This document shows, in pieces, positions 211 through 50,410 of a stretch of 64,000 nucleotides of DNA. Source of the stretch: Gemmatimonadales bacterium (GTDB taxonomy: Bacteria; Gemmatimonadota; Gemmatimonadetes; Gemmatimonadales; GWC2-71-9); the NCBI GenBank assembly GCA_019637315.1, contig JAHBVU010000019.1, forward strand, positions 1,371 through 65,370. The letters are read 5' to 3'. How positions within the stretch are numbered: the first letter of the stretch is position 1; every line of letters begins with the position of its first letter. A program made the position numbers and the translations under genes. The notes beneath the pieces were generated by a model that ran no database searches, was not told the DNA's origin, and saw only the letters and a program-made list of their open reading frames with translations.

Positions 211-1146
211 ATGATGATTTCGACGATCGACACCCATACGGCCGGCGGCCCGACCCGCATCGTGCTGGACGGTTTGCCGCCGCTGACTGGCGCGACGGCC
301 GCAGAGCGCATGGGTGTCTTCCGAACCGAGCACGACGCGATTCGGAAGTTCCTGCTCAACGAGCCGCGCGGTCATCGCGGCATGTACGGCGCGGTGGTCA
401 GCCCGTCAGATGATCCCGAGGTGGACCTGTCGGTCTTTTTCATGACGACCGGCGGGTATCTCCCGACCTGCGTTCACGGCTCGATCGGCGTGGCAACCGC
501 AATGCTCGCCGAGGGGAGGCTCCAGCCTCGGCCCGACGGTAACCTGTACTTCGACACCCCGGGCGGACGAATGCCGCTGACCCCGCGGTATCAGGGCGGT
601 GCCTTGGCCGCGATCTCGTTGCGGACTCAACCAGGGACGGTCACTCAGCCCCAGGTCGAGCTGGACGCTGACGGCGCCCAGATCGTGGCCTCGGCGGTGT
701 TCTGCGGTGTGCCTTTCCTCCTCGTCCCCGCCGATCAGACTGGCAAGGCGGCAGTCCAGGACAACCTGGCGTTCTTCGTAGACCTCGGGGTGCGGCTGCT
801 CGCCCAGGCGGGGCCGAGCTACGTCCTGGCGCTGTTTTACGAGGCGCTACCGGGTGGAGGGTTCCGCGATGTTGTCATCGGACGGACCGGTGGCATCGAT
901 CGATCGCCGTGTGGCGCCGGTGTCGGCGCGCTGGCAATCCACGAACACGTCGCGGGCCGCCTTCCGGTCGGTGCCGAGCTGACGGTCACGGGGCTCATCG
1001 GAACTCAGTTTGCGGTCCGCGTGGTGAGCGCCGACGCGGGCGGGGTGACCCCCGAGATTTCGGGGAGCGCCTGGGTCACCGGCACCCATCAGTTTGTGCT
1101 GGCCGAGTCGGATCCGTTGGCGGAGGGTTTCGATCTGGGCCGGTAG
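211..1146 (+). CDS. Proline racemase / 4-hydroxyproline epimerase family protein
   Basis: 311 aa. It has the N-terminal IDTHTAGGPTRIV and C-terminal DRSPCGAG family motifs. It starts 4 nt after the SDR stop codon. Confidence 0.85.
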   Translation: MMISTIDTHTAGGPTRIVLDGLPPLTGATAAERMGVFRTEHDAIRKFLLNEPRGHRGMYGAVVSPSDDPEVDLSVFFMTTGGYLPTCVHGSIGVATAMLAEGRLQPRPDGNLYFDTPGGRMPLTPRYQGGALAAISLRTQPGTVTQPQVELDADGAQIVASAVFCGVPFLLVPADQTGKAAVQDNLAFFVDLGVRLLAQAGPSYVLALFYEALPGGGFRDVVIGRTGGIDRSPCGAGVGALAIHEHVAGRLPVGAELTVTGLIGTQFAVRVVSADAGGVTPEISGSAWVTGTHQFVLAESDPLAEGFDLGR

Positions 1147-1160
1147 CCGGCGGCCGCCGC

Positions 1161-1179
1161 TCAACGCCCTGGGCGTTGA
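1161..1179. terminator. Perfect 8-bp-stem hairpin TCAACGCC-ctg-GGCGTTGA after the proline-racemase-family gene
   Basis: The inverted repeat was read directly, 15 nt after the stop at 1144-1146. There is no clear T tract. Confidence 0.4.
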
Positions 1180-1382
1180 ACTCGGACAACGGATCTTTGA
1201 AGTCGGGGAGTATCGGTGCCTGCCGGTGACCACTGCATGCCGAGACAAGTCAGGGTCCAGACGGCTTCGATCCGCTCTTCCCGGGAATAGCGCAGCCACT
1301 CCAGGTCGGTGAGCGGTTGAGTTTCCCCCGGACGTACGACGCGGCTAACGATATGGCGATGGGAACGAGGGGTCTCGGCCAT
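1161..1382 (-). CDS. Hypothetical small protein (73 aa from MAETPRSH...), possibly a decaying or foreign gene
   Basis: Part of ORF 1161..1424. GC3 is lower than in neighbouring genes (about 65% by hand count). I recognised no motif and no clear SD. Confidence 0.25.
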   Translation of the reverse strand: MAETPRSHRHIVSRVVRPGETQPLTDLEWLRYSREERIEAVWTLTCLGMQWSPAGTDTPRLQRSVVRVQRPGR

Positions 1383-1454: not shown

Positions 1455-3356
<1,902 letters not shown>

Positions 3357-26293: not shown

Positions 26294-27544
26294 TTACTTG
26301 CCGGCGGCCGGCTCCATCTTCCAGAACGCGATGCCGCCCGCCTGCTGCCCGACGTCGACGGTAGCGACCTTCGCGAGCGCCTGCAGGTCGTAGATGTCGA
26401 CCTTGCCAGGCTCGGCGCCTTTGCCCTCGTTGCTCACGAAGGCGTAGCGGGAGTCCGGGGTGATGACGACGCCATGGGTTACCGTCGTCGAACTGGTAAA
26501 CTTGCCGACCTGCTTGCCGGTGGTGAGGTCGACGACTTCGACGCCGTTGCCCTGCTTGAGCGTGATCACCAGCAGCTTGCCGTCGGGCGAGGTGGCGAGG
26601 TTGTACGGCCCGCGACCGGCAGCAAAACGGCGGCTCACGGCCCACGCGCCGTGGTCGACTTCCAGAATCTCATCCGACTTGTTGCAGGCCACATAGATCC
26701 GGGCTCCATCCGCCGACGGCTGCGCCCAGGTGGGTGAGCAACTCTGCGGTTCCATCGCGTGGCGCATGCCGCGGTAGCCGACATCGGCGGGGTCGACTTC
26801 GGTGCCGGGTCGGGCCGGGGCATGCCCGCTGTGCATATGCGCAGCCATCGCGCCGCGATCGTCGACGGGCAGGGGACCTTCCTTCCCCTTGGCCACCGAG
26901 AACCGGCGGGAGACTGCAAACTTGCGGGTGTCGATCTCGACCAGCTGATCGTCCATCATGCAGCCCGAGTAATGAAAGCGGCCGCTCGGATCGATCCGGC
27001 TGCCGTGGGGCATGGTGCAGGTGATGATCCGGGTGACCTCGGTGTGAGTCGGCGTGTAGACCACCGAGAAGGTCGAGGGCACCATGTCGCCGTGCAAGTT
27101 GAAGTTCGCCGCCAGGGCGTAGAGTCCGTCCGGCGAGATGTCGATCGAGGCAGGGAAGTTGCCGAGCAATACGCCCGGACCGACCAGGGTGTCCGGACCA
27201 AGCTCGTAGCGCCAGTACTTGCCGTCAGGAAAACCATGACCGGTCGTCATGTGCAGGTACTTGCCGTCGCGCGAAATGGCCAGGCCGTGCGGGCCTTCCA
27301 TCTCCGCGGCGAGCTCACCCACGGGTATGGTCTTTTCCACCGTGGCCCCGTCCGGCCCAAACCGGATCCGATGGATCAGGTCGGCCGACTCGGCGCCGAC
27401 ATAGGCCCAGTAGGTGGCCTTGGGCGGTGCCGGCTTGGCGGCCTGGGCCGCGAGCTCGGGTGCCTCGAAGGCGGCCAGCCCGGCCAGCACCCCGACCAGG
27501 GTCAACGAAAGGCTCGTCTTGCGCGTAGGGCTAATCGTCCGCAT
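26294..27544 (-). CDS. YncE/YVTN-type beta-propeller repeat protein, secreted
   Basis: Start at MRTISPTRK... with GAGGAAGGTGG SD. Repeated propeller-blade motifs (...SPDGKYL..., ...SPDGLYA..., ...SPDGKLL..., ...TPDSRYA...). A His-rich insert MAAHMHSGHAP. Confidence 0.75.
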   Translation of the reverse strand: MRTISPTRKTSLSLTLVGVLAGLAAFEAPELAAQAAKPAPPKATYWAYVGAESADLIHRIRFGPDGATVEKTIPVGELAAEMEGPHGLAISRDGKYLHMTTGHGFPDGKYWRYELGPDTLVGPGVLLGNFPASIDISPDGLYALAANFNLHGDMVPSTFSVVYTPTHTEVTRIITCTMPHGSRIDPSGRFHYSGCMMDDQLVEIDTRKFAVSRRFSVAKGKEGPLPVDDRGAMAAHMHSGHAPARPGTEVDPADVGYRGMRHAMEPQSCSPTWAQPSADGARIYVACNKSDEILEVDHGAWAVSRRFAAGRGPYNLATSPDGKLLVITLKQGNGVEVVDLTTGKQVGKFTSSTTVTHGVVITPDSRYAFVSNEGKGAEPGKVDIYDLQALAKVATVDVGQQAGGIAFWKMEPAAGK

Positions 27545-29756: not shown

Positions 29757-31274
29757 CTATCGTTTGCGGAGCTCCAGATACGAAGCAACCGAGAAGAAGA
29801 GCGGATCGATGCCGGTCTGGGCGCTGGCCTGACCGCGTAGAACGCCATTGACGAGACGCAGGTCGAAGGCGACGGTATGGGACACCCAATCGACGTCGGG
29901 TGTCGGAATGGTGCCGGCAAAACGGCCGCTCAGGACGCCGTCACGGTAGCTTGGCATGTTGACCAGGGCGCGGAGCTGTTTGCGAAGCAAAGGGTCATCG
30001 CCTGGACGCATCGCCTCGCCGATCTGGGTCTGCATTTCGCCTGATGACCGGACTTCCAGCTCGAAGGGAAGGGTTCTGGTCCAGGTACGCAGCGTGCCGG
30101 TCCAGGTGCCGACCAGCTCGGCCGGTGGCGCGAATGCGGCTGGCGCGGGCGTCGGTCGGGGCCGGGCGCGCTCCGCTTTGAGCGAATCGGCGTAGCCGGG
30201 CAGGATGACGGCAGCCGCCTCGCTCAGGACGTCGCCGAACGGTGCGGCCGACGCGTTGGTCAGCACCACGATGACGGCGTTGGCTTCCGGATAGAGGTGG
30301 AGGATGGTGCTGACTCCAGGCATCCCGCCGCTGTGCTGAACCAGCCGGTGTCCGCGATCCTGACCGACGACCCATCCCAGGCTGTAGTGCGAACCAAAGG
30401 CCGGTGTCTCCGGGCGCTGCATCTCGTCGATTCGCGATGCAGGCAGAATGGCCCGCTGCTCGGCTAGCTTGTTCTTGAGGTGGAACATGCCGAAGCGCAC
30501 CAGGTCGTGCGCGCTGGAGTAGACGGCCGACCCGCCCGGATGATCGAAGGTGTAGAACGGCACCGGTTTGCCTCTCCAGTACCGCTCGGCGACATAGGGC
30601 TCGAGTCCGGGGGCGATATCGATCGAAGTCCGGGTCAGTCCCAACGGCAGGAAGACTTCGTTCCGCATGAAATCGGCGTAGGTGCGGCCGGACACCCGGC
30701 TGATGATATCGTCCAGAATCCCGTAGCCAAGGTTCGAGTACTGGAAGGTCTCGCCAGGTGCGGAGACCAGGATGCCGTAGCGACCGACGGTTTCATCCAT
30801 CGAAGGGCGGCGGCGGGTTGCCTCGTTGTCGTAAAAGAACTGGTAGTGAAGAGGCAGGCCCGAGGTGTGCGCCAGGATTCGTCGGACCGTGGCACCCGAG
30901 GCATCGCCGGCCAGACCGGTAATCTTACCGAAGCCGAGGTAGTCGTTGGCGGGCCGATCGAGATCCACCTGACCGCGGTCGACGAGAAGCATCAGGCCGG
31001 TGGCCGTGATCGGCTTGGAGATCGAGGCCAGCGAGAACATGGTGTGCTCGGTGGCCGGGATGAGTTTTTCTCGGTTGGCCCAACCGAAACCCTCCTCCCA
31101 GACGATCTTGCCGTCTTTGGCAACGGCAACCGCAACGGCGGCGACACCGCGCTCGACGACCAGGCGGTTGGCGGCTTCGCGCACGGGTTGCCAGCGATCG
31201 GGGCGCGGTGAACTTTGGGCGCCGATCAGGGTCGGCGTCAGGGCAAGGAGGATCAGGCCAAACGATCGTCGCAT
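29757..31274 (-). CDS. Serine hydrolase, beta-lactamase/PBP-like
   Basis: Signal peptide and SxxK motif (ASISKPIT). 505 aa. Confidence 0.85.
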   Translation of the reverse strand: MRRSFGLILLALTPTLIGAQSSPRPDRWQPVREAANRLVVERGVAAVAVAVAKDGKIVWEEGFGWANREKLIPATEHTMFSLASISKPITATGLMLLVDRGQVDLDRPANDYLGFGKITGLAGDASGATVRRILAHTSGLPLHYQFFYDNEATRRRPSMDETVGRYGILVSAPGETFQYSNLGYGILDDIISRVSGRTYADFMRNEVFLPLGLTRTSIDIAPGLEPYVAERYWRGKPVPFYTFDHPGGSAVYSSAHDLVRFGMFHLKNKLAEQRAILPASRIDEMQRPETPAFGSHYSLGWVVGQDRGHRLVQHSGGMPGVSTILHLYPEANAVIVVLTNASAAPFGDVLSEAAAVILPGYADSLKAERARPRPTPAPAAFAPPAELVGTWTGTLRTWTRTLPFELEVRSSGEMQTQIGEAMRPGDDPLLRKQLRALVNMPSYRDGVLSGRFAGTIPTPDVDWVSHTVAFDLRLVNGVLRGQASAQTGIDPLFFSVASYLELRKR

Positions 31275-31378
31275 CGTCGCGGCTCACGGTGGAGATGTGG
31301 ACTGGTGTTGCGGTTGGGATCCTGCAAGTTATCGTCATGCCCCGATCCGGCGCGAGGTGTGGGGACCCTCGAGCCACT

Positions 31379-31407
31379 TTACAATCTCGAGGTCTCCAGA
31401 TTATCGT
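31379..31407 (+). promoter_or_regulatory. Candidate sigma70-like promoter TTACAA-17-TATCGT for the Cys-leader / dsbD-N / tlpA unit
   Basis: Hexamers read directly in a locally AT-richer stretch. The predicted TSS is near 31414. Confidence 0.35.
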
Positions 31408-31442
31408 CCTCCCTCGACACTACTGATGTTCGGAGTTTGCTG

Positions 31443-31514
31443 ATGCCGCTGGTCCGCGCCACTGTCGCCTGTTGTTGTCCCCTCGAATCCGGGTGGGGCG
31501 GCGCGCGGCTATAG
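31443..31514 (+). CDS. Candidate leader peptide MPLVRATVACCCPLESGWGGARL (23 codons, three consecutive TGT Cys codons)
   Basis: ATG with GGAG 7 nt upstream. TGT TGT TGT lies at 31470-31478. The sequence was confirmed from ORF-track frame 31215..31514. A terminator lies downstream. Confidence 0.45.
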   Translation: MPLVRATVACCCPLESGWGGARL

Positions 31515-31559
31515 CAGCATAGTCTATCGCGCCACGGCGGCGCGCAGTCAGATCGCTTC

Positions 31560-31595
31560 CGGCCCACCCTGTTCACGGGTGGGCCGTTTTCGTTG
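31560..31595 (+). terminator. Intrinsic terminator inside a 5' leader (attenuator candidate)
   Basis: CGGCCCACCC-tgttcac-GGGTGGGCCG followed by TTTTCGTTG. It sits 60 nt upstream of the dsbD-N-like start codon, with no gene ending before it on this strand apart from the mini-ORF. Confidence 0.75.
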
Positions 31596-31656
31596 TGGCC
31601 TGCCCGAGACCTGACTTGTCAGTGGACGGTCGTACCTCGGCGTAAGGAAGGAACCA

Positions 31657-32130
31657 ATGCAGGTCTCATTGAAGCTGGTTATCTGGTTGTCCGTGCTCGC
31701 GGTGTCGAGCGCTCAGGCGCAGGGCCCTGATCCGGTTCGCTGGTCGGTGGCAATCGTGCCGACGCGTGGGGGCACCCCGGACGTGGTCACCCTTGCGGTG
31801 ACGGCGTCGATCGAACCTGGCTGGAAGGTGTATTCGCTGACCCAGACATCGGGCGGGCCCTATCCCCTGCGGATCGCGCCGGGCGGCGAGTCGGTCGTGC
31901 TGGCGGGCGCCGTCACGGGTCCGACGCCGATCGTTCAGGAAACATCGGCATTCGGTATTCCGGTCGAGGTCTATGGCGGCGAGCCCCGATTCGTGGTGCC
32001 AGTTCGGGTTGGCTCAGGAGGATCGAAGGCCGGGGCCGAACTGCGCGTCCGCTACCAGGCCTGCACCGAGACCACCTGCCTGCCGCCCCGGACCGCCACC
32101 CTCGTTGCGCAGCTGCCAGGAGCCCGGTGA
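31657..32130 (+). CDS. DsbD N-terminal (alpha) domain-like thiol-disulfide protein, secreted
   Basis: Signal peptide and the C-terminal motif RVRYQACTETTCLPP (YQxC...C.PP typical of DsbD_N-like domains). AAGGAAGGA SD. Confidence 0.7.
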   Translation: MQVSLKLVIWLSVLAVSSAQAQGPDPVRWSVAIVPTRGGTPDVVTLAVTASIEPGWKVYSLTQTSGGPYPLRIAPGGESVVLAGAVTGPTPIVQETSAFGIPVEVYGGEPRFVVPVRVGSGGSKAGAELRVRYQACTETTCLPPRTATLVAQLPGAR

Positions 32131-33350
32131 TGCTGGAACTGAGCAGTCTCGCGCGTGGGTGGGTTGCCATCGGGCTGCTGACTCTTGGCTCGGCAGGTCT
32201 CGCGGCGCAGGAGCCCAGCGGCCGCTGGACCGGCACGATCAGCTATGACTCGTTGCGCATCGACTTTCCGCTCGAATGGGCCGTCGAGTCGGGGCGCCAG
32301 CTGGTTCGGCTCTACAACGGCGACCTGCCGGTGACCTCGACGGCAGTGCATCGGCAGGGCGACTCCGTCGTGGTCGAGTTTGCCCACCTGGCCACGAGGT
32401 TCGAAGGCGTGCTCGAGGGCGGCGCCTTCCGGGGTCGCTATGGCAACGAGCGGCGCGGTTACCATCCGGTCGAGGCGGCGCCGACCCTCGAGGCGGCACG
32501 ATTCGCAGCCGGGGCCCCTCGGATCGACGGAGAGTGGTACCTGCCGGTCGAAACCGCCAAGGGCGAGCGCGCCTGGCGTTTCGTGGTACGGCAGGACGGA
32601 TCGCAGCTGTCCGCGACGATCCTCCGGGTGGACGGCGATGCCGGAGCTCTCACGGGCGGCTGGACGGGGTCCAGGTTCGTGCTCAGCCATTTCGCCGGAA
32701 CCCGTCCGGCGCGGCTCGAGATCGATCCGCAGTCGGATGGCACGCTCCGGCTGACGCTTCATGCGCCGCGGGGAGCGCCCCGAAGCTTCGAGGCGATCCG
32801 ACCCGAGCTGGCCCGTGCCCGGGGGCTCCCCGAGCCCGCCGACGTCGCGACGCACACCAGGGTTCGCGATCCGAAAGAGCCGTTCACCTTTGCGTTTCCC
32901 GATCTCGACGGTCGGCTGGTCACGGAGCGGGACGCCCGCTTTGTCGGCAAGGTCATCGTGGTGAATGTCACCGGCAGCTGGTGCCCCAACTGCCACGACG
33001 AGGCGCCCTTCCTGGCCGATCTCTACCGGCGCTATCGGGACCGGGGGCTCGAGGTCGTCGCCCTGGACTTCGAAGAAGCGGAGGAACTGGAGGATCTCAG
33101 CCGGCTGCGCGCGTTCGTCGCCAGGTATGGCATCGAGTACCCGTACCTCGTGGCGGGCGAGCCCGGCGAGGTCGCTGCCAAGCTGCCGCAGGCCGTCAAC
33201 CTGAACACCTGGCCCGCCACCTTCTTCATCAACCGGGAAGGCCGGGTTCACGCGGTGCGAAGCGGCTTTGCCGCCAAAGCCAGCGGGTCGTATCACGACG
33301 CGCTGGTGCGGGAGTACATCGCCATCGTGGAGGGTCTGCTCGACCAGTAA
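32127..33350 (+). CDS. TlpA/ResA-family thioredoxin-fold thiol-disulfide oxidoreductase with a long N-terminal domain
   Basis: ATGA overlap with the upstream gene. CxxC motif VNVTGSWCPNCHDEAPFL in the C-terminal ~140 aa. Confidence 0.8.
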   Translation: MMLELSSLARGWVAIGLLTLGSAGLAAQEPSGRWTGTISYDSLRIDFPLEWAVESGRQLVRLYNGDLPVTSTAVHRQGDSVVVEFAHLATRFEGVLEGGAFRGRYGNERRGYHPVEAAPTLEAARFAAGAPRIDGEWYLPVETAKGERAWRFVVRQDGSQLSATILRVDGDAGALTGGWTGSRFVLSHFAGTRPARLEIDPQSDGTLRLTLHAPRGAPRSFEAIRPELARARGLPEPADVATHTRVRDPKEPFTFAFPDLDGRLVTERDARFVGKVIVVNVTGSWCPNCHDEAPFLADLYRRYRDRGLEVVALDFEEAEELEDLSRLRAFVARYGIEYPYLVAGEPGEVAAKLPQAVNLNTWPATFFINREGRVHAVRSGFAAKASGSYHDALVREYIAIVEGLLDQ

Positions 33351-33355
33351 GACTG

Positions 33356-33426
33356 GGCGCCGTGGCCAAGTGGTAAGGCAAGGGTCTGCAAAACCCTGAT
33401 CACCGGTTCGATTCCGGTCGGCGCCT
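33356..33426 (+). tRNA. tRNA-Cys: tRNA-Cys (anticodon GCA)
   Basis: Cloverleaf folded by hand. Acceptor GGCGCCG/CGGCGCC, anticodon stem AGGGT/ACCCT with loop CTGCAAA, T arm ACCGG-TTCGATT-CCGGT, discriminator U. CCA is not encoded. It starts 6 nt after the tlpA-like stop codon. Confidence 0.9.
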
Positions 33427-33448
33427 CTGGACTCCTCGAATGCAGGAC

Positions 33449-33480
33449 GGCCCGAGCAACCATGGCTGGTTGCCCGGGCC
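33449..33480. terminator. GC-rich hairpin between tRNA-Cys and the convergent glutamate dehydrogenase gene (bidirectional terminator candidate)
   Basis: GGCCCGAGCAACCA-tggc-TGGTTGCCCGGGCC, 13 bp with one mismatch. No strong T tract. Confidence 0.5.
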
Positions 33481-33503
33481 GCGGCCGGCGATCCTCGTGC
33501 GGC

Positions 33504-34916
33504 TTAGGGGAAGAGGCCCAGTTCCTCGTAGCTGACGGCAATCTTGTCGATGGCGGACACGAACGCTGCGGTGCGGAGGTCCGTCGGGCCCTTGGGCCGG
33601 AGCAGGATGTCGCGAATCTGGTGGTAGGCTACGGCCATGGAGTCTTCCAGGCCCGAGTTGACCAGATCCTCTTCGCTTGCTCCGTGGGCAATCCGATCGA
33701 GCTCGGCCTGATCGATGGCACGTCCGGTCGACTGCTGGACCAGATTCAGGATGCCCAGGTTCGATTGCTCTTCGAAGCGCCGCTGCATGCGTCCGAAACG
33801 GACGTGCGAGAGGTTCTTGAGCCATTCGAAGTACGAGACGGTGACACCACCGGCATTGAGATAGAAGTCGGGAATGATGTAGACGCCCCGCGCTTTGAGG
33901 ATGCCGTCTGCCTCCGCCGTGGTTGGTCCGTTGGCCGCCTCGCCGATGATCTTGGCTTTGATGCGCGGAGCGTTGTCCGCGGTAATCACATTCTCGAGAG
34001 CGGCAGGGATCAGGATATCGCAGTCGAGTTCGAGCGCAGCGATCGACTGTGGGATATCCTGAGCCCCCGGATAACCCAGGATCGACTTGTTGGTTTTCCG
34101 GTGCTGCATCACCCGGTCGAGGTCGAGACCCTTCGGGTTGCTGATTGCGCCTTCATACTCGGCCAGCCCAACCAGCACGGCGCCCTGCTCCTGGAGAAAC
34201 TTGGCGGCGTAGTAGCCCACATTGCCGAGACCCTGGATCACGACCCGCTTCCCGGCCAGCCCGGGAGTCAAACCGAGCTTCTTCATGTCGTCGGCGACGT
34301 TGCAGGCTTCGCGCAGGCCGAACATCACCCCTCGACCGGTGGCTTCGGTGCGGCCCCGGATTCCACCCTGCGAAGCAGGCTTGGCGGTCACGCAGGCCAT
34401 CGCATTCAAGTCATTGCTCAGGCTGCGGTAGGTGTCGGCAATCCAGGCCATTTCGCGCGAGCTGGTGCCGTAGTCGGGCGCCGGAACGTCCACGCCAGGT
34501 CCGATGAAGTTCTTGCGCCAGAGCTCGAAGGTGTAGCGCCGGGTTATCCGCTCGAGCTCCGCAGCCGAGTACTTGTGGCGAGCAATCCGGATGCCGCCCT
34601 TGGCGCCACCGAAGGGCACATCCAGCAGGGCGCACTTGAACGTCATCAGCGACGCGAGACCCATCACCTCGTCGGCCGTGACGGCCATCGAGTAGCGGAT
34701 CCCGCCCTTGGTCGGCATCCGATGGTGGCTGTGTTCCGCGCGCCAGGCGTGAATCACCTCGATCGTGCCGTCGTCGCGACGAAGCGGGAAGGTCATCTGA
34801 TAGACGGCATTGCATGCCTTGATGTGCGCCAGCAGGGTCGGGTCGTGCGGGGTCAGGGCCGCGGCCTGGTCGAACATGGCTTCGACCTGCGCGAGGAGAC
34901 TGACTTCGGTCGTCAT
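33504..34916 (-). CDS. Glu/Leu/Phe/Val dehydrogenase family (glutamate dehydrogenase)
   Basis: Motifs TKGGIRY and VPFGGAKGGI. Rossmann GLGNVG. Start at MTTEVSLLAQ with GGGAG SD. Confidence 0.9.
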   Translation of the reverse strand: MTTEVSLLAQVEAMFDQAAALTPHDPTLLAHIKACNAVYQMTFPLRRDDGTIEVIHAWRAEHSHHRMPTKGGIRYSMAVTADEVMGLASLMTFKCALLDVPFGGAKGGIRIARHKYSAAELERITRRYTFELWRKNFIGPGVDVPAPDYGTSSREMAWIADTYRSLSNDLNAMACVTAKPASQGGIRGRTEATGRGVMFGLREACNVADDMKKLGLTPGLAGKRVVIQGLGNVGYYAAKFLQEQGAVLVGLAEYEGAISNPKGLDLDRVMQHRKTNKSILGYPGAQDIPQSIAALELDCDILIPAALENVITADNAPRIKAKIIGEAANGPTTAEADGILKARGVYIIPDFYLNAGGVTVSYFEWLKNLSHVRFGRMQRRFEEQSNLGILNLVQQSTGRAIDQAELDRIAHGASEEDLVNSGLEDSMAVAYHQIRDILLRPKGPTDLRTAAFVSAIDKIAVSYEELGLFP

Positions 34917-34947
34917 GACGGCTCCCGGATGTGAAGGTGTCGCGTGA

Positions 34948-36135
34948 TCAGTGCGGATGCGTGTGCCGGCGATGGTGTTCTCGGAGCAGGTCCTTGCCGT
35001 AGTCGTTGCCATTCGGGGTTCGGACCACGGCATGAATGTGGTGGCGGGTTGGCCCGGTTCCGTGCTCTCGCAGCGCAATCGGGCGCTGATGGTCGAACTC
35101 GATCAGAATGACGGGGCTGTGGATTCGGTAGTAGAAGACGGCGTCGGGCTCGGTCGGCCCGATCCAGGCGAAATGGGTCCGGTCGAGGTGCGCCTCGACC
35201 TCGGCCATGCGCACCCGGGCGTGACCTTCCCGCATGTTGCCGACGTAGAGGCCGATCAGGTCCAGCAGCTGACGCCGCTGGCTGGGCGAAAACGAACGAG
35301 CCGACACACCGGCGTAGTCGAGCACGACGTTGTCACGAAAAGCCTCGGTCAGCGTGTTGACGCCTGCCTTGGCGCTGTCGATGATCGCCGCCTTGCGTTG
35401 ACCGGGCATCAGGGCATTGACCAGGGCCAGGCCGGCGTCCTGCTCCTGCTGCAGGATCGAGACGCCCTGGTACTTGCCTGACGTCGCCGTGACAGGCTCG
35501 GAGCCGACGAACATCGGGGTCATCACCACCTGGTCGCCCAGGACGAAGTAGTTGATGATCAGGTGATGCCCGTCGAGCTGCCAGCCCCAGGGTTCGGTTT
35601 CCGAGGGCTCGCCCATGATGGTGATCCAGTAGAGCCACTCGCCGTACTCCTCGAAGTTGCCCGTCAGCTCCGCCAGCGTGTGATTGAGTCGCATGATGTC
35701 GCGGCTCAATCGCAGGCCCTTGGCGCTCAGCGAGGCGCCCAGCATGGCAAAGGCCGCCTCACGCTGGGCCTCGCTCATCTCCCTGAAGCCAACGCCCTGG
35801 CGAACGTAGAAATGCTGGTTCATCCATTTACGCCACTCGGGGTCGTCGTCGGCAAAGAGCGTCTTGGCTTGCTGAATCGGGGTCAGAGACTTGATGAAGG
35901 TGCGTGCGGCCTCCACGGCAGGAGCTGTGGAGACACCGGTCGATCGAATTGGAAAGAGGCCAGTGAGCGGGGTGCCGTCGGTAGTGATGCCCTTGAACGG
36001 CTCGGCGAGGCCGCGGGCTTCCGCCTCGCGGGACAGCCGCGCTGCGCGGGCCGCGGTACTCTCCTGCTGCGCTCCGAGCTCTGGTACTCCGACTGTTACG
36101 AGCAGACTCACAACGGTGACGGCCAGCAAGCGCAT
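34948..36135 (-). CDS. DUF3500 domain-containing secreted protein
   Basis: Signal peptide. The [14 protein letters not shown] motif matches my memory of the DUF3500 'W.w..GHHl..n' core. Confidence 0.6.
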
Positions 36136-49257: not shown

Positions 49258-49263
49258 CCCTGG

Positions 49264-49359
49264 ATGCAGCTGGTTCACTCCGTGACCCCCGCAGTACCCC
49301 CTGTGTGCCTCTCCCGCCTCGTCGGGACGGGTCACCAGGACTGTTGTTGTTGCCGCTAA
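49264..49359 (+). CDS. Candidate leaderless leader peptide MQLVHSVTPAVPPVCLSRLVGTGHQDCCCCR (31 codons)
   Basis: ATG at the predicted TSS. TGT TGT TGT TGC at 49342-49353, then CGC TAA. Confirmed via the antisense ORF (..SLAATTTV..). Confidence 0.45.
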   Translation: MQLVHSVTPAVPPVCLSRLVGTGHQDCCCCR

Positions 49360-49420
49360 AGACGTCCCAGGCGTCGTCCGAAGTTCGTCGTTCGTCAATT
49401 CAATAATCGAGGCAGGTCTT

Positions 49421-50410
49421 ATGTCGTTTCCATCGGGGACACTTCCCGTTGCGGTGTACTATGAGCACCCGGACTGGTTCAAGCCGCTTTTTGCCGAGCT
49501 CGATCGGCGCGGGATTCCCTGGGTTGCCCTGGATGCTGCGGCGCACGAGTACGATCCGGCCGACCTGACGCGCCACTATTCGCTGGTCGTCAACCGCAAC
49601 AGCCCGTCGGCCTATCTCCGGGCCCATGGTCAGGCCACGTTCCATACTCTCAACTGGCTTCGTCACGTCGAGCGTACTGGCACTCCGGTCGTCAACGGCT
49701 CGGCGGTCTATGGGCTCGAGATCTCGAAAGCGTTCCAGGTCGAGGTCCTTTCCGAGCTCGGCCTGCCGGTGCCGCGTGCACTCGTCATCAATCATGCCTC
49801 CCGGGCAGCCTCGGCAGCACAACGGTTGCGGTATCCGGTGGTCGTCAAGGCCAATATCGGCGGCAGCGGCGCGGGAATCGTCCGTTTCGATTCCGAAGCC
49901 CAATTGACCGAGGCCGTCGCGGCCGGCCGGATCGATCTCGGTGTCGATGGGACTGCCCTGGTTCAGGAACTGGCTCCACTGTCCGGGGGGCGGATTACCA
50001 GAGTCGAGGTCCTCGACGGCAAGTTCCTCTATGCCATCAACGTCTATCCGACTGGAGAGTCGTTCAACCTCTGCCCGGCCGACATCTGCCAGACGACGGA
50101 AGGGCGGGCGCTGGATCGCACCTTCTGCGCAGCAGACGCACCCAGGACCGGGATGCGGGTCGAGCGGGCGGATCCTCCCGCTCACATCATCGCGCAGGTC
50201 GAGAGGATCGCCCGTCATGTGCATCTCGATATCGGCGGCATCGAGTATCTGGTCGATGAGCGCGACGGTGAGCACTACTTCTACGATATCAATGCACTGT
50301 CGAATTTCGTTGCCGACGCCCCGAACGTGATCGGGTTCGACCCGTTTGCCCGCTTCGTGGATTATCTCGAAGTGCGAGCGGGTCTGGTCGCACGGGCTCT
50401 GGGTGCCTGA
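49421..50410 (+). CDS. ATP-grasp domain protein (RimK/GshB-like ligase)
   Basis: 329 aa. GAGG SD 8 nt upstream. ATP-grasp pattern (YPVVVKANIGGSGAGIVRF..., GGIEYLVDERDGEHYFYDINALSNF). Confidence 0.8.
   Translation: MSFPSGTLPVAVYYEHPDWFKPLFAELDRRGIPWVALDAAAHEYDPADLTRHYSLVVNRNSPSAYLRAHGQATFHTLNWLRHVERTGTPVVNGSAVYGLEISKAFQVEVLSELGLPVPRALVINHASRAASAAQRLRYPVVVKANIGGSGAGIVRFDSEAQLTEAVAAGRIDLGVDGTALVQELAPLSGGRITRVEVLDGKFLYAINVYPTGESFNLCPADICQTTEGRALDRTFCAADAPRTGMRVERADPPAHIIAQVERIARHVHLDIGGIEYLVDERDGEHYFYDINALSNFVADAPNVIGFDPFARFVDYLEVRAGLVARALGA

Follow-up and report, generated by a model that had tools for sequence, protein, structure and literature searches.

In a 64,000-nt stretch of a Gemmatimonadales contig (JAHBVU010000019.1; hereafter the window), the 5' leader of an operon encoding exported thiol-disulfide oxidoreductases, at 31378-31656, carries a small open reading frame (sORF) with three consecutive cysteine codons, followed by an intrinsic terminator. 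This leader is probably a leader-peptide attenuator of transcription, mediated by the ribosome and responsive to Cys-tRNA(Cys). Several lines of evidence bear on this reading, including nucleotide-level conservation in close relatives and modelled alternative pairings, but the decisive support is that the layout persists in sequence-unrelated leaders of orthologous operons, upstream of genes for a DsbD N-terminal-domain (DsbD_N) protein and a TlpA-like reductase.

Architecture and conservation of the leader

The elements of the leader are as follows, all on the plus strand.

31378-31407 (+): sigma-70-like promoter, TTTACA-18-TATCGT, from the promoter scan
31432-31435 (+): Shine-Dalgarno (SD) sequence GGAG, 7 nt 5' of the sORF ATG
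31443-31514 (+): leader sORF of 23 codons, MPLVRATVACCCPLESGWGGARL, with ATG at 31443 and TAG at 31512-31514
31470-31478 (+): candidate sensor codons TGT TGT TGT, Cys 10-12 of 23
31477-31485 and 31490-31499 (+): hairpin 1:2, formed by region 1, GUCCCCUCG, and region 2, CGGGUGGGGC, in minimum free energy (MFE) and centroid folds
31491-31500 (+): putative antiterminator strand (region 2), GGGUGGGGCG, with the terminator 5' arm (31560-31569) as candidate partner
31497-31545 (+): GC-rich central segment, near-invariant in close relatives
31560-31595 (+): intrinsic terminator (regions 3:4) and T tract from the terminator scan, the proposed attenuator

The original prediction of a cysteine-codon attenuator at this site was made from the letters alone, and the features that it listed (sORF, GGAG, the three TGT codons, terminator, repeats and CGCGCC) were all found at the coordinates that it gave. 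Its promoter was also present, but is read here as TTTACA beginning at 31378 with an 18-nt spacer, not as TTACAA-17-TATCGT. This is the only promoter-like site in 30800-32200, a region in which shuffled sequences average 0.1. Between the end of the -10 hexamer (31407) and the sORF ATG there are 35 nt, and transcription would start near 31414.

The terminator consists of the arms CGGCCCACCC (31560-31569) and GGGTGGGCCG (31577-31586), separated by the loop TGTTCAC and followed by TTTTCGTTGT, with nine G-C pairs in a 10-bp stem according to the tool score. It begins 45 nt after the sORF stop codon, and its stem ends 70 nt before the next ATG (31657), leaving about 61 nt between the T tract and that ATG. 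The upstream gene, of the beta-lactamase family (29757-31274), is on the minus strand, and therefore the terminator lies in a 5' leader and behind no gene, as had been claimed. Nor is it a repeat element, because its sequence is single-copy in the window. A covariance-model scan of 30500-32500 against Rfam 15 (E<=10) returned only chance-level matches, with E values of at least 0.88.

The window was assigned to Gemmatimonadales by its TlpA-like protein, and three relatives (L001, L002 and L161) with TlpA-like proteins 82-85% identical to it provide a family of four leaders with 88% identity, referred to here as the window family. The original prediction had hinged on relatives keeping the mini-ORF and the Cys run, and all three keep both: the start, stop, frame and 23-codon length of the sORF are retained, and TGT TGT TGT is invariant, as is TTCGGAG, which contains the SD sequence. 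The promoter hexamers and their 18-nt spacing are also kept, while the spacer sequence drifts. The stem of hairpin 1:2 is retained despite an AATC-to-GAAA change in the loop and a C-G to U-G change in one closing pair, and the terminator is retained with one C-to-U change that leaves a G-U pair. Mean nucleotide identity is 82% from the Cys run to the end of the terminator, against 66% from promoter to ATG, 54% in the spacer between terminator and start codon, and 78% in the two coding genes. Within the sORF, codons 7-9 vary non-synonymously (TVA, QAV, NLV and HAV), whereas codons 10-22 are almost invariant, third positions included. Hence the constraint appears to be on the Cys codons and the RNA, rather than on the peptide. 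Two further reading frames in the leader were dismissed: a 5-codon ORF overlapping the SD sequence (MFGVC and stop, 31426-31443), which the relatives do not keep, and a minus-strand ORF at 31379-31576, the frame of which is broken by indels in the family alignment.

The leaders favour the minor cysteine codon, TGT. The long ORFs of the window use 96 TGC and 28 TGT codons. In the 19 terminator-bearing leaders of the survey described below, Cys codons comprise 61 TGT and 25 TGC (71% TGT), compared with 77 TGT and 239 TGC (24%) in neighbouring genes, a difference with a Fisher p value of 5e-15 across loci that are not phylogenetically independent. Two of the leader families were found via the TGT pattern, and leaving both out, 52 TGT and 23 TGC remain. 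UGU is decoded by tRNA-Cys(GCA) through G-U wobble, and a preference for what would be the slower codon would sharpen a sensor of this type.

Alternative pairings and a proposed switch

Structure prediction, a check proposed with the original prediction, yielded mutually exclusive 1:2, 2:3 and 3:4 pairings in silico. In both MFE and centroid folds, the free leader forms the local hairpin 31477-31485/31490-31499 plus the terminator, and the fold energy of 31410-31600 is modestly better than that of shuffled sequences (z = -1.6). The segment GGGTGGGGC at 31491-31499 is, as had been noticed, a near copy of the terminator 3' arm, such that 31491-31500 and 31560-31569 can form seven pairs, a mismatch and two pairs. 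The energy of this duplex is -19.7 kcal/mol, which beats 99% of same-segment shuffles; p is about 0.002-0.01 in the window, L001 and L002, and 0.07 in L161. The GC-rich central segment between the two strands folds into internal hairpins inside the antiterminator helix, and includes a direct repeat, GGCGGCGCGC, at 31497-31506 and 31536-31545, the GCGCGC core of which is self-complementary, as well as CGCGCC at 31528-31533.

The effect of a ribosome was modelled by masked folds of ten Gemmatimonadota leaders in three states. With the ribosome stalled, represented by masking to 12 nt past the Cys run before the terminator 3' arm is made, the 3' part of the sORF is the pairing partner of the terminator 5' arm in all ten leaders; in the window, G31491-G31497 pair with C31563-C31569, followed by one mismatch and two further pairs. 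The models thereby reproduce the earlier proposal that a stalled ribosome would leave the antiterminator free. With the ribosome at the stop codon, the terminator 5' arm is free in all ten leaders, and with no ribosome, the G-rich strand is held in the local hairpin. As modelled, this pairing scheme matches the 1:2, 2:3 and 3:4 logic of trp-type attenuators.

The switch would operate as follows. Transcription would begin near 31414, and the 23-codon sORF would be translated. With abundant charged tRNA-Cys, the ribosome would pass UGU-UGU-UGU, and hairpin 31477-31485/31490-31499 would reform behind it, locking away the G-rich strand; the terminator at 31560-31586 would then form, and most transcripts would stop near 31595, at a length of roughly 180 nt. 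When charged tRNA-Cys is scarce, the ribosome would stall on the three wobble-read UGU codons, with a footprint reaching to about 31485-31490 that would cover region 1. The freed 31491-31500 would pair with the terminator 5' arm as this emerges from the polymerase, blocking the terminator, and RNA polymerase would continue into the DsbD_N, TlpA-like reductase and tRNA-Cys genes. The footprint geometry assumed here is that of general ribosome-protected lengths.

Distant relatives, downstream genes and a second cysteine-rich sORF

Relatives whose TlpA-like protein is 54-59% identical to that of the window have leaders that cannot be aligned with its leader, but the architecture is the same: a promoter-like site and a Cys-cluster sORF come first, then an intrinsic terminator at 28-45 nt past the stop codon, and finally the DsbD_N and TlpA-like genes. 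A metagenome scan with the TlpA-like protein added relatives that, among the matches listed, were 43-54% identical, and these served the survey rather than the search for covariation. The combination of Cys-cluster sORF, terminator, and DsbD_N/TlpA-like genes was found at 19 loci representing about 10 sequence families. The original prediction had suggested looking for co-occurrence and covariation of Cys run and terminator upstream of orthologous operons, and the co-occurrence is confirmed by these loci. Examples of the leader peptides are given below.

L003: ..SHRDVTCCCPCCRVVCCRTSHAGGLVTSICSG
L164: MSSAMLLRDFTCCCPRCCALRCRAG..
L168: MRSSMLLRDFTCCCPRCRALRCRAE..
L167: MSRKLNCCSLLTCACPISG..
L170: MRSFTRRAISCCRPCG..
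L171: MSRIGVLGCCRRACG..
L081: ..VVGCCPCRL..
L088: ..CCAGDCCPCCM..

The cluster of Cys codons is the sole feature common to the approximately 10 unrelated leader families. The terminator-bearing sORFs range from 11 to 47 codons, and those of the raw scan from 7 to 57 aa. Across 171 loci, intergenic Cys-cluster sORFs were on the operon strand in 37 cases and on the opposite strand in 7. L003, L164 and L168 share the pattern ..DFTCCCPRC.., while L122, L134, L151, L156 and L159 constitute a separate family, MxVVRCxxCSCC[PV]AG..., directly 5' of TlpA-like genes, with a conserved hairpin within the sORF right after the Cys codons; in this family, the L156 terminator has an A-U to G-C compensatory change. 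L080 encodes ..STRSCCCPPQQ and a stop codon, then a terminator. In L069, a Vicinamibacterales metagenome-assembled genome, two tandem modules of sORF and hairpin, MCMCCCLDGSEP and MQTKTLCGCCCRIRTSGRGRLYASR, occupy 2636-3000 (+); the second terminator was called by the tool, and the first was found only by our own scan. This first terminator is weak, and might act in both directions.

Across the 19 leader sORFs, the residue after the Cys run is very commonly Pro (CCCP, CSCCP, CCPC, CCCPP) or Arg (CCCR). The C-rich codons after the run, which in many families encode Pro, may simply supply region 1, or may have an effect on elongation. Many Acidobacteriota loci instead have a near-leaderless sORF ending in ..CCC(C)R(C)x with no clear terminator. 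Those in L030, L052, L138, L066, L124, L078 and L136 are about 1.2-1.8 kb 5' of the TlpA-like gene, and the intervening genes include a GAF-ANTAR regulator in L030, L052 and L138, and a PIG-L/LmbE-type deacetylase in L030, L138 and L066. The versions with GAF-ANTAR genes may join Cys sensing with ANTAR antitermination.

The genes downstream of the window leader, and the features that follow them, are listed here.

31645-31654 (+): SD sequence of the DsbD_N gene
31657-32130 (+): gene 1, DsbD N-terminal-domain protein (Pfam PF11412, E=4e-13), exported, with a signal peptide; contains the motif YQACTETTCLPP
32127-33350 (+): gene 2, exported TlpA/ResA-class thioredoxin-fold reductase with a signal peptide and WCPNC
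33356-33427 (+): tRNA-Cys(GCA), from ARAGORN
33449-33480: GC-rich inverted repeat between tRNA-Cys and the convergent glutamate dehydrogenase gene
33504-35078 (-): glutamate dehydrogenase (gdh), as in L161

Only 5 nt (33351-33355) separate the stop codon of the TlpA-like gene from tRNA-Cys, a gene that the original prediction had missed, and a consensus scan found no promoter-like or terminator-like site within 32100-35200. We infer that the leader, DsbD_N, TlpA-like and tRNA-Cys genes form one transcription unit with the tRNA at its 3' end, and the inverted repeat at 33449-33480 is likely to be the end of the operon. The tRNA-Cys junction is identical in layout in L001, L002 and L161. More widely, 12 of the 20 tRNA genes in the surveyed loci are tRNA-Cys, which is downstream on the operon strand in 11 loci including the window (the others being L001, L002, L161, L069, L009, L018, L031, L094, L102 and L130). 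The same three parts occur in L069, from another phylum (Acidobacteriota), with the gene order swapped: leaders, TlpA-like, DsbD_N and then, past a 12-nt gap from the stop codon, tRNA-Cys. In Bryobacterales loci, the gene immediately before the tRNA encodes a serine hydrolase, rhodanese or GAF protein, and is itself 3' of the TlpA-like gene.

The DsbD_N and TlpA-like proteins each contain only two cysteines, the active-site pair. The TlpA-like protein has an N-terminal beta-rich region of about 240 residues ahead of its reductase domain. In its AlphaFold model, which has a predicted local distance difference test (pLDDT) score of 87, similarity to ResA/TlpA-type structures is confined to the C-terminal domain; for the N-terminal region (residues 30-240; 32127-32850) there was no Pfam match and no fold match in the PDB. 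This region is confidently modelled, conserved, probably comprises two domains, and is a hallmark of this TlpA-like subfamily. Companion genes in relatives encode OsmC, LanC-like, rhodanese and PIG-L/LmbE-type deacetylase proteins, which would fit a thiol or sulfur theme. Two rationales for the regulation are speculative: the enzymes might free cysteine or sulfur reductively from extracellular disulfides under sulfur limitation, or Cys-tRNA charging might be a proxy for thiol oxidation, inducing envelope reductases. In Pseudomonas, the proteins induced by sulfate starvation include members of the AhpC/TSA family, which provides a lead only. A 490-aa plus-strand ORF (33462-34934) has no family match, overlaps the minus-strand glutamate dehydrogenase gene, and is probably spurious. 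The LanC-like gene in L168 raised the idea of a precursor of a ribosomally synthesised and post-translationally modified peptide, which was rejected: ORF 33462-34934 is not similar, and the window has no LanC-like gene.

The window contains a second polyCys sORF at 49264-49359 (+), MQLVHSVTPAVPPVCLSRLVGTGHQDCCCCR, ending in ..CCCCR, the Cys tract of which is encoded by TGT TGT TGT TGC. It is near-leaderless, with TTGACC-17-TAGAGT separated from the ATG by only 5 nt (49259-49263), and folding of 49264-49435 found no structure better than shuffles. It is located between a serine-hydrolase gene and a three-gene operon encoding a RimK-like ATP-grasp protein, an SfnG/SsuD-like flavin monooxygenase (best NCBIfam match 258 bits, under the cut-off) and a reductase of the Old Yellow Enzyme (OYE)/NamA type. 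Three relatives keep it 5' of orthologous operons.

L172: ..GCCCCR and stop
L173: MRTSTCMAMCSCCRP.., then a terminator
L174: ..MSCCCCWRPACPG...

In L175, the same position is occupied by a SAM-II (S-adenosylmethionine) riboswitch (RF00521; 2367-2441, +) that scores above the Rfam gathering threshold. As a SAM sensor here takes the place of a Cys sORF before an orthologous operon, an exchange to be expected of two sensors for sulfur amino acids, these sORFs arguably report sulfur amino-acid status. A further SAM-II riboswitch, at 1144-1213 (-) in L171, precedes the gene divergent from the main leader, and its sequence is conserved in L003, L164, L168 and L170. The divergent gene encodes a pyridoxal phosphate enzyme of Cys/Met metabolism, Pfam-confirmed only in L168 and L170. 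Elsewhere in the window, a short intergenic ORF with a CC pair, MPPACCPTSTVATFASACRS, at 26331-26393 (+), may be a chance occurrence.

Competing readings, known systems and significance

Several observations weigh against a cysteine-responsive attenuator. The stem changes within the window family are one-sided (G-C to G-U), and the covariation that the original prediction had also suggested seeking is absent, with no compensatory changes among four sequences of 88% identity. Outside this family, antiterminator complementarity is no better than in shuffles (p 0.09-0.86), and duplexes formed across families have energies at least as good as those formed within a family; this last test is uninformative, because all the terminator arms are G/C-rich and pair about equally with any G-rich tract. 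Hence the models support a specific antiterminator for the window family, but leave it unproven as a general feature. When the whole leader is present, the terminator stays the lowest-energy state even with a stalled ribosome, and therefore the switch must be kinetic, as in trp. It had been proposed that a running ribosome would occlude the antiterminator, but one that has arrived at the stop codon (31512-31514) would extend back no further than the 3' edge of region 2. Therefore the OFF state would depend on hairpin 1:2 refolding behind the ribosome. The DsbD_N and TlpA-like proteins rely on Cys chemistry but are not cysteine-biosynthetic and have two cysteines each, which leaves the physiological logic speculative. 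Finally, the tRNA-Cys gene could conceivably have a promoter inside the TlpA-like gene, the consensus scan notwithstanding.

These points leave room for other explanations. The closest would keep an sORF-dependent attenuator but replace cysteine supply as the primary signal with thiol oxidation or oxidative stress, by which reduced cysteine and in turn charging would fall, or with arrest caused by the nascent peptide or a ligand. That the regulated genes encode thiol-disulfide oxidoreductases is in its favour, as are the OsmC, PIG-L/LmbE-type deacetylase and rhodanese genes of relatives, and the Pro codon after the Cys run in many families. We nevertheless consider it unlikely, as the second polyCys sORF precedes a sulfur-scavenging-type operon and is replaceable by a SAM-II riboswitch, pointing to sulfur amino-acid status, while Cys is the sole residue common to all families, and no specific arrest peptide is apparent. 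It is quite unlikely that the sORF instead encodes a functional small Cys-rich peptide, metal- or redox-active, with a promoter of its own and a leaky terminator that sets stoichiometry, and involves no sensor. Such a peptide would explain why the sORF has its own promoter, SD sequence and terminator, and why Cys-Cys(-Cys)-Pro or Cys-Cys-Arg recurs across unrelated families; a LanC-like gene is also downstream in one relative, although not in the window. Yet between families only Cys is conserved, over lengths of 11-47 codons, and within the window family conservation is at the nucleotide level and extends beyond the stop codon. Furthermore, the peptides lack signal sequences although the downstream enzymes are exported, and enrichment of the minor TGT codon would be odd in a peptide optimised for expression.

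The leader is also self-contained, running from promoter to terminator around a conserved GC-rich core, and attenuator-derived small RNAs (sRNAs) are known, one being rnTrpL (PMC6614838). However, it is very unlikely that the terminated transcript of roughly 180 nt is mainly a trans-acting sRNA, with the downstream operon expressed from another promoter: the spacer from terminator to 31657 contains no promoter-like site and is the least conserved segment (54%), the leader has no Rfam match (30500-32500), and sequence-unrelated leaders at the same position in other lineages fit a function in cis better than a conserved pairing of sRNA and target. Short ORFs and stable hairpins are common in GC-rich DNA, and the fold of 31410-31600 beats shuffles only modestly, but a chance meeting of ORF, Cys run and hairpin in GC-rich intergenic DNA is effectively refuted by the comparative data, which show the arrangement at four closely related loci and no fewer than 15 distant ones; the strand asymmetry, codon bias and shuffle tests also make coincidence extremely improbable. 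An attenuator reading the charging of tRNA-Cys is the explanation that we retain.

The classical attenuators (the trpL leader of E. coli, hisL of Salmonella, and the leu, thr, ilv and pheA leaders) resemble the window leader in having a short leader ORF with tandem codons for the sensed residue and a Rho-independent terminator before the first structural gene; their exclusive 1:2, 2:3 and 3:4 pairings, among which ribosome position selects, are predicted for the window leader. The latter differs in the proposed sensing of cysteine, in its host phylum, Gemmatimonadota, and in its putative targets, exported thiol-disulfide oxidoreductases and a tRNA rather than a biosynthetic pathway; moreover, its sORF stops 13 nt past region 2, whereas the classical stop codon is between regions 1 and 2. 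The E. coli pheST leader peptide, rich in the cognate amino acid, similarly controls a component of the same aminoacylation system, and so feeds back on decoding capacity, although that component is a synthetase, rather than the tRNA gene of the window.

Cysteine sensing by leaderless polycysteine sORFs has been shown experimentally in mycobacteria (Canestrari et al. 2020, bioRxiv 10.1101/834739; Mol Microbiol 114:93), where they act on translation, sequestering the SD sequence of the next gene; according to the authors in 2020, attenuation by cysteine through an upstream ORF (uORF) was previously undescribed. This mycobacterial "Cys ribulon" shares with the window consecutive Cys codons in an upstream sORF, here a proposed readout of charged tRNA-Cys, and several sulfur or thiol operons per genome. 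The second sORF (49264-49359) closely resembles the mycobacterial class, being near-leaderless with a C-terminal Cys tract and no obvious terminator. By contrast, the sORF at 31443 has a 5' untranslated region with an SD sequence, a mid-ORF Cys run and an intrinsic terminator, in an unrelated phylum, and judged by this layout the main leader is not a member of the class. The original prediction knew of no Cys leader combined with a terminator, but one had already been predicted 5' of cysS in Rhodobacterales (uORFC-8-2; Brewer et al. 2021, RNA Biol, PMC8632094). As in the window, tandem Cys codons are inside the first stem and precede an intrinsic terminator, with a tie to the tRNA-Cys charging system. 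However, uORFC-8-2 is alphaproteobacterial and has two Cys codons, mostly UGC, near uORF positions 14-15, whereas the window has three UGU; the target is cysS rather than DsbD_N, TlpA-like and tRNA-Cys genes; there is no detectable sequence relationship, and both are predictions. Hence the main leader is not a member of the uORFC-8-2 cysS motif either. A literature search found nothing on Cys-leader elements in Gemmatimonadota or Acidobacteriota, before DsbD_N/TlpA-type genes, or with tRNA-Cys, nor any published case of an attenuator that controls a tRNA gene while reading the codons of that tRNA. The points of interest added here are the presence of tRNA-Cys in the operon, the preference for UGU, the unusual targets, and the evidence for a multi-operon Cys-sORF system outside Actinobacteria.

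We propose a broader scheme only tentatively, and regard it as doubtful in its entirety. Stalling at UGU may raise transcription of the exported reductase genes and of a tRNA-Cys gene that is probably the only one, in a feedback loop on decoding capacity. This loop might be one node of a cross-phylum Cys ribulon (Gemmatimonadota, Acidobacteriota and possibly Dormibacterota) of terminator-based and leaderless or translational polyCys sORFs, interchangeable with SAM riboswitches; in this network, sulfur scavenging and thiol-redox homeostasis of the envelope would be coupled to the charging of Cys-tRNA.

Cysteine was long a conspicuous gap in leader-peptide attenuation. The only tested case, that of mycobacteria, is translational, and the only terminator case, at cysS in Rhodobacterales, is predicted. 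If the attenuator reading is true, Cys codons do serve in classical terminator/antiterminator attenuation, which is then widespread among soil phyla that have received little study; the exported thiol-disulfide oxidoreductase targets would hint at a role in the cysteine or sulfur economy, or in thiol-redox repair; and a tRNA gene could be controlled by an attenuator that senses the codons of that tRNA. The strong preference of the leaders for UGU rather than UGC would represent a natural test of how wobble decoding tunes the sensitivity of an attenuator. For the annotation of Gemmatimonadota and Acidobacteriota genomes, a practical rule would be that a Cys-cluster sORF in a 5' leader marks a cysteine-responsive operon.

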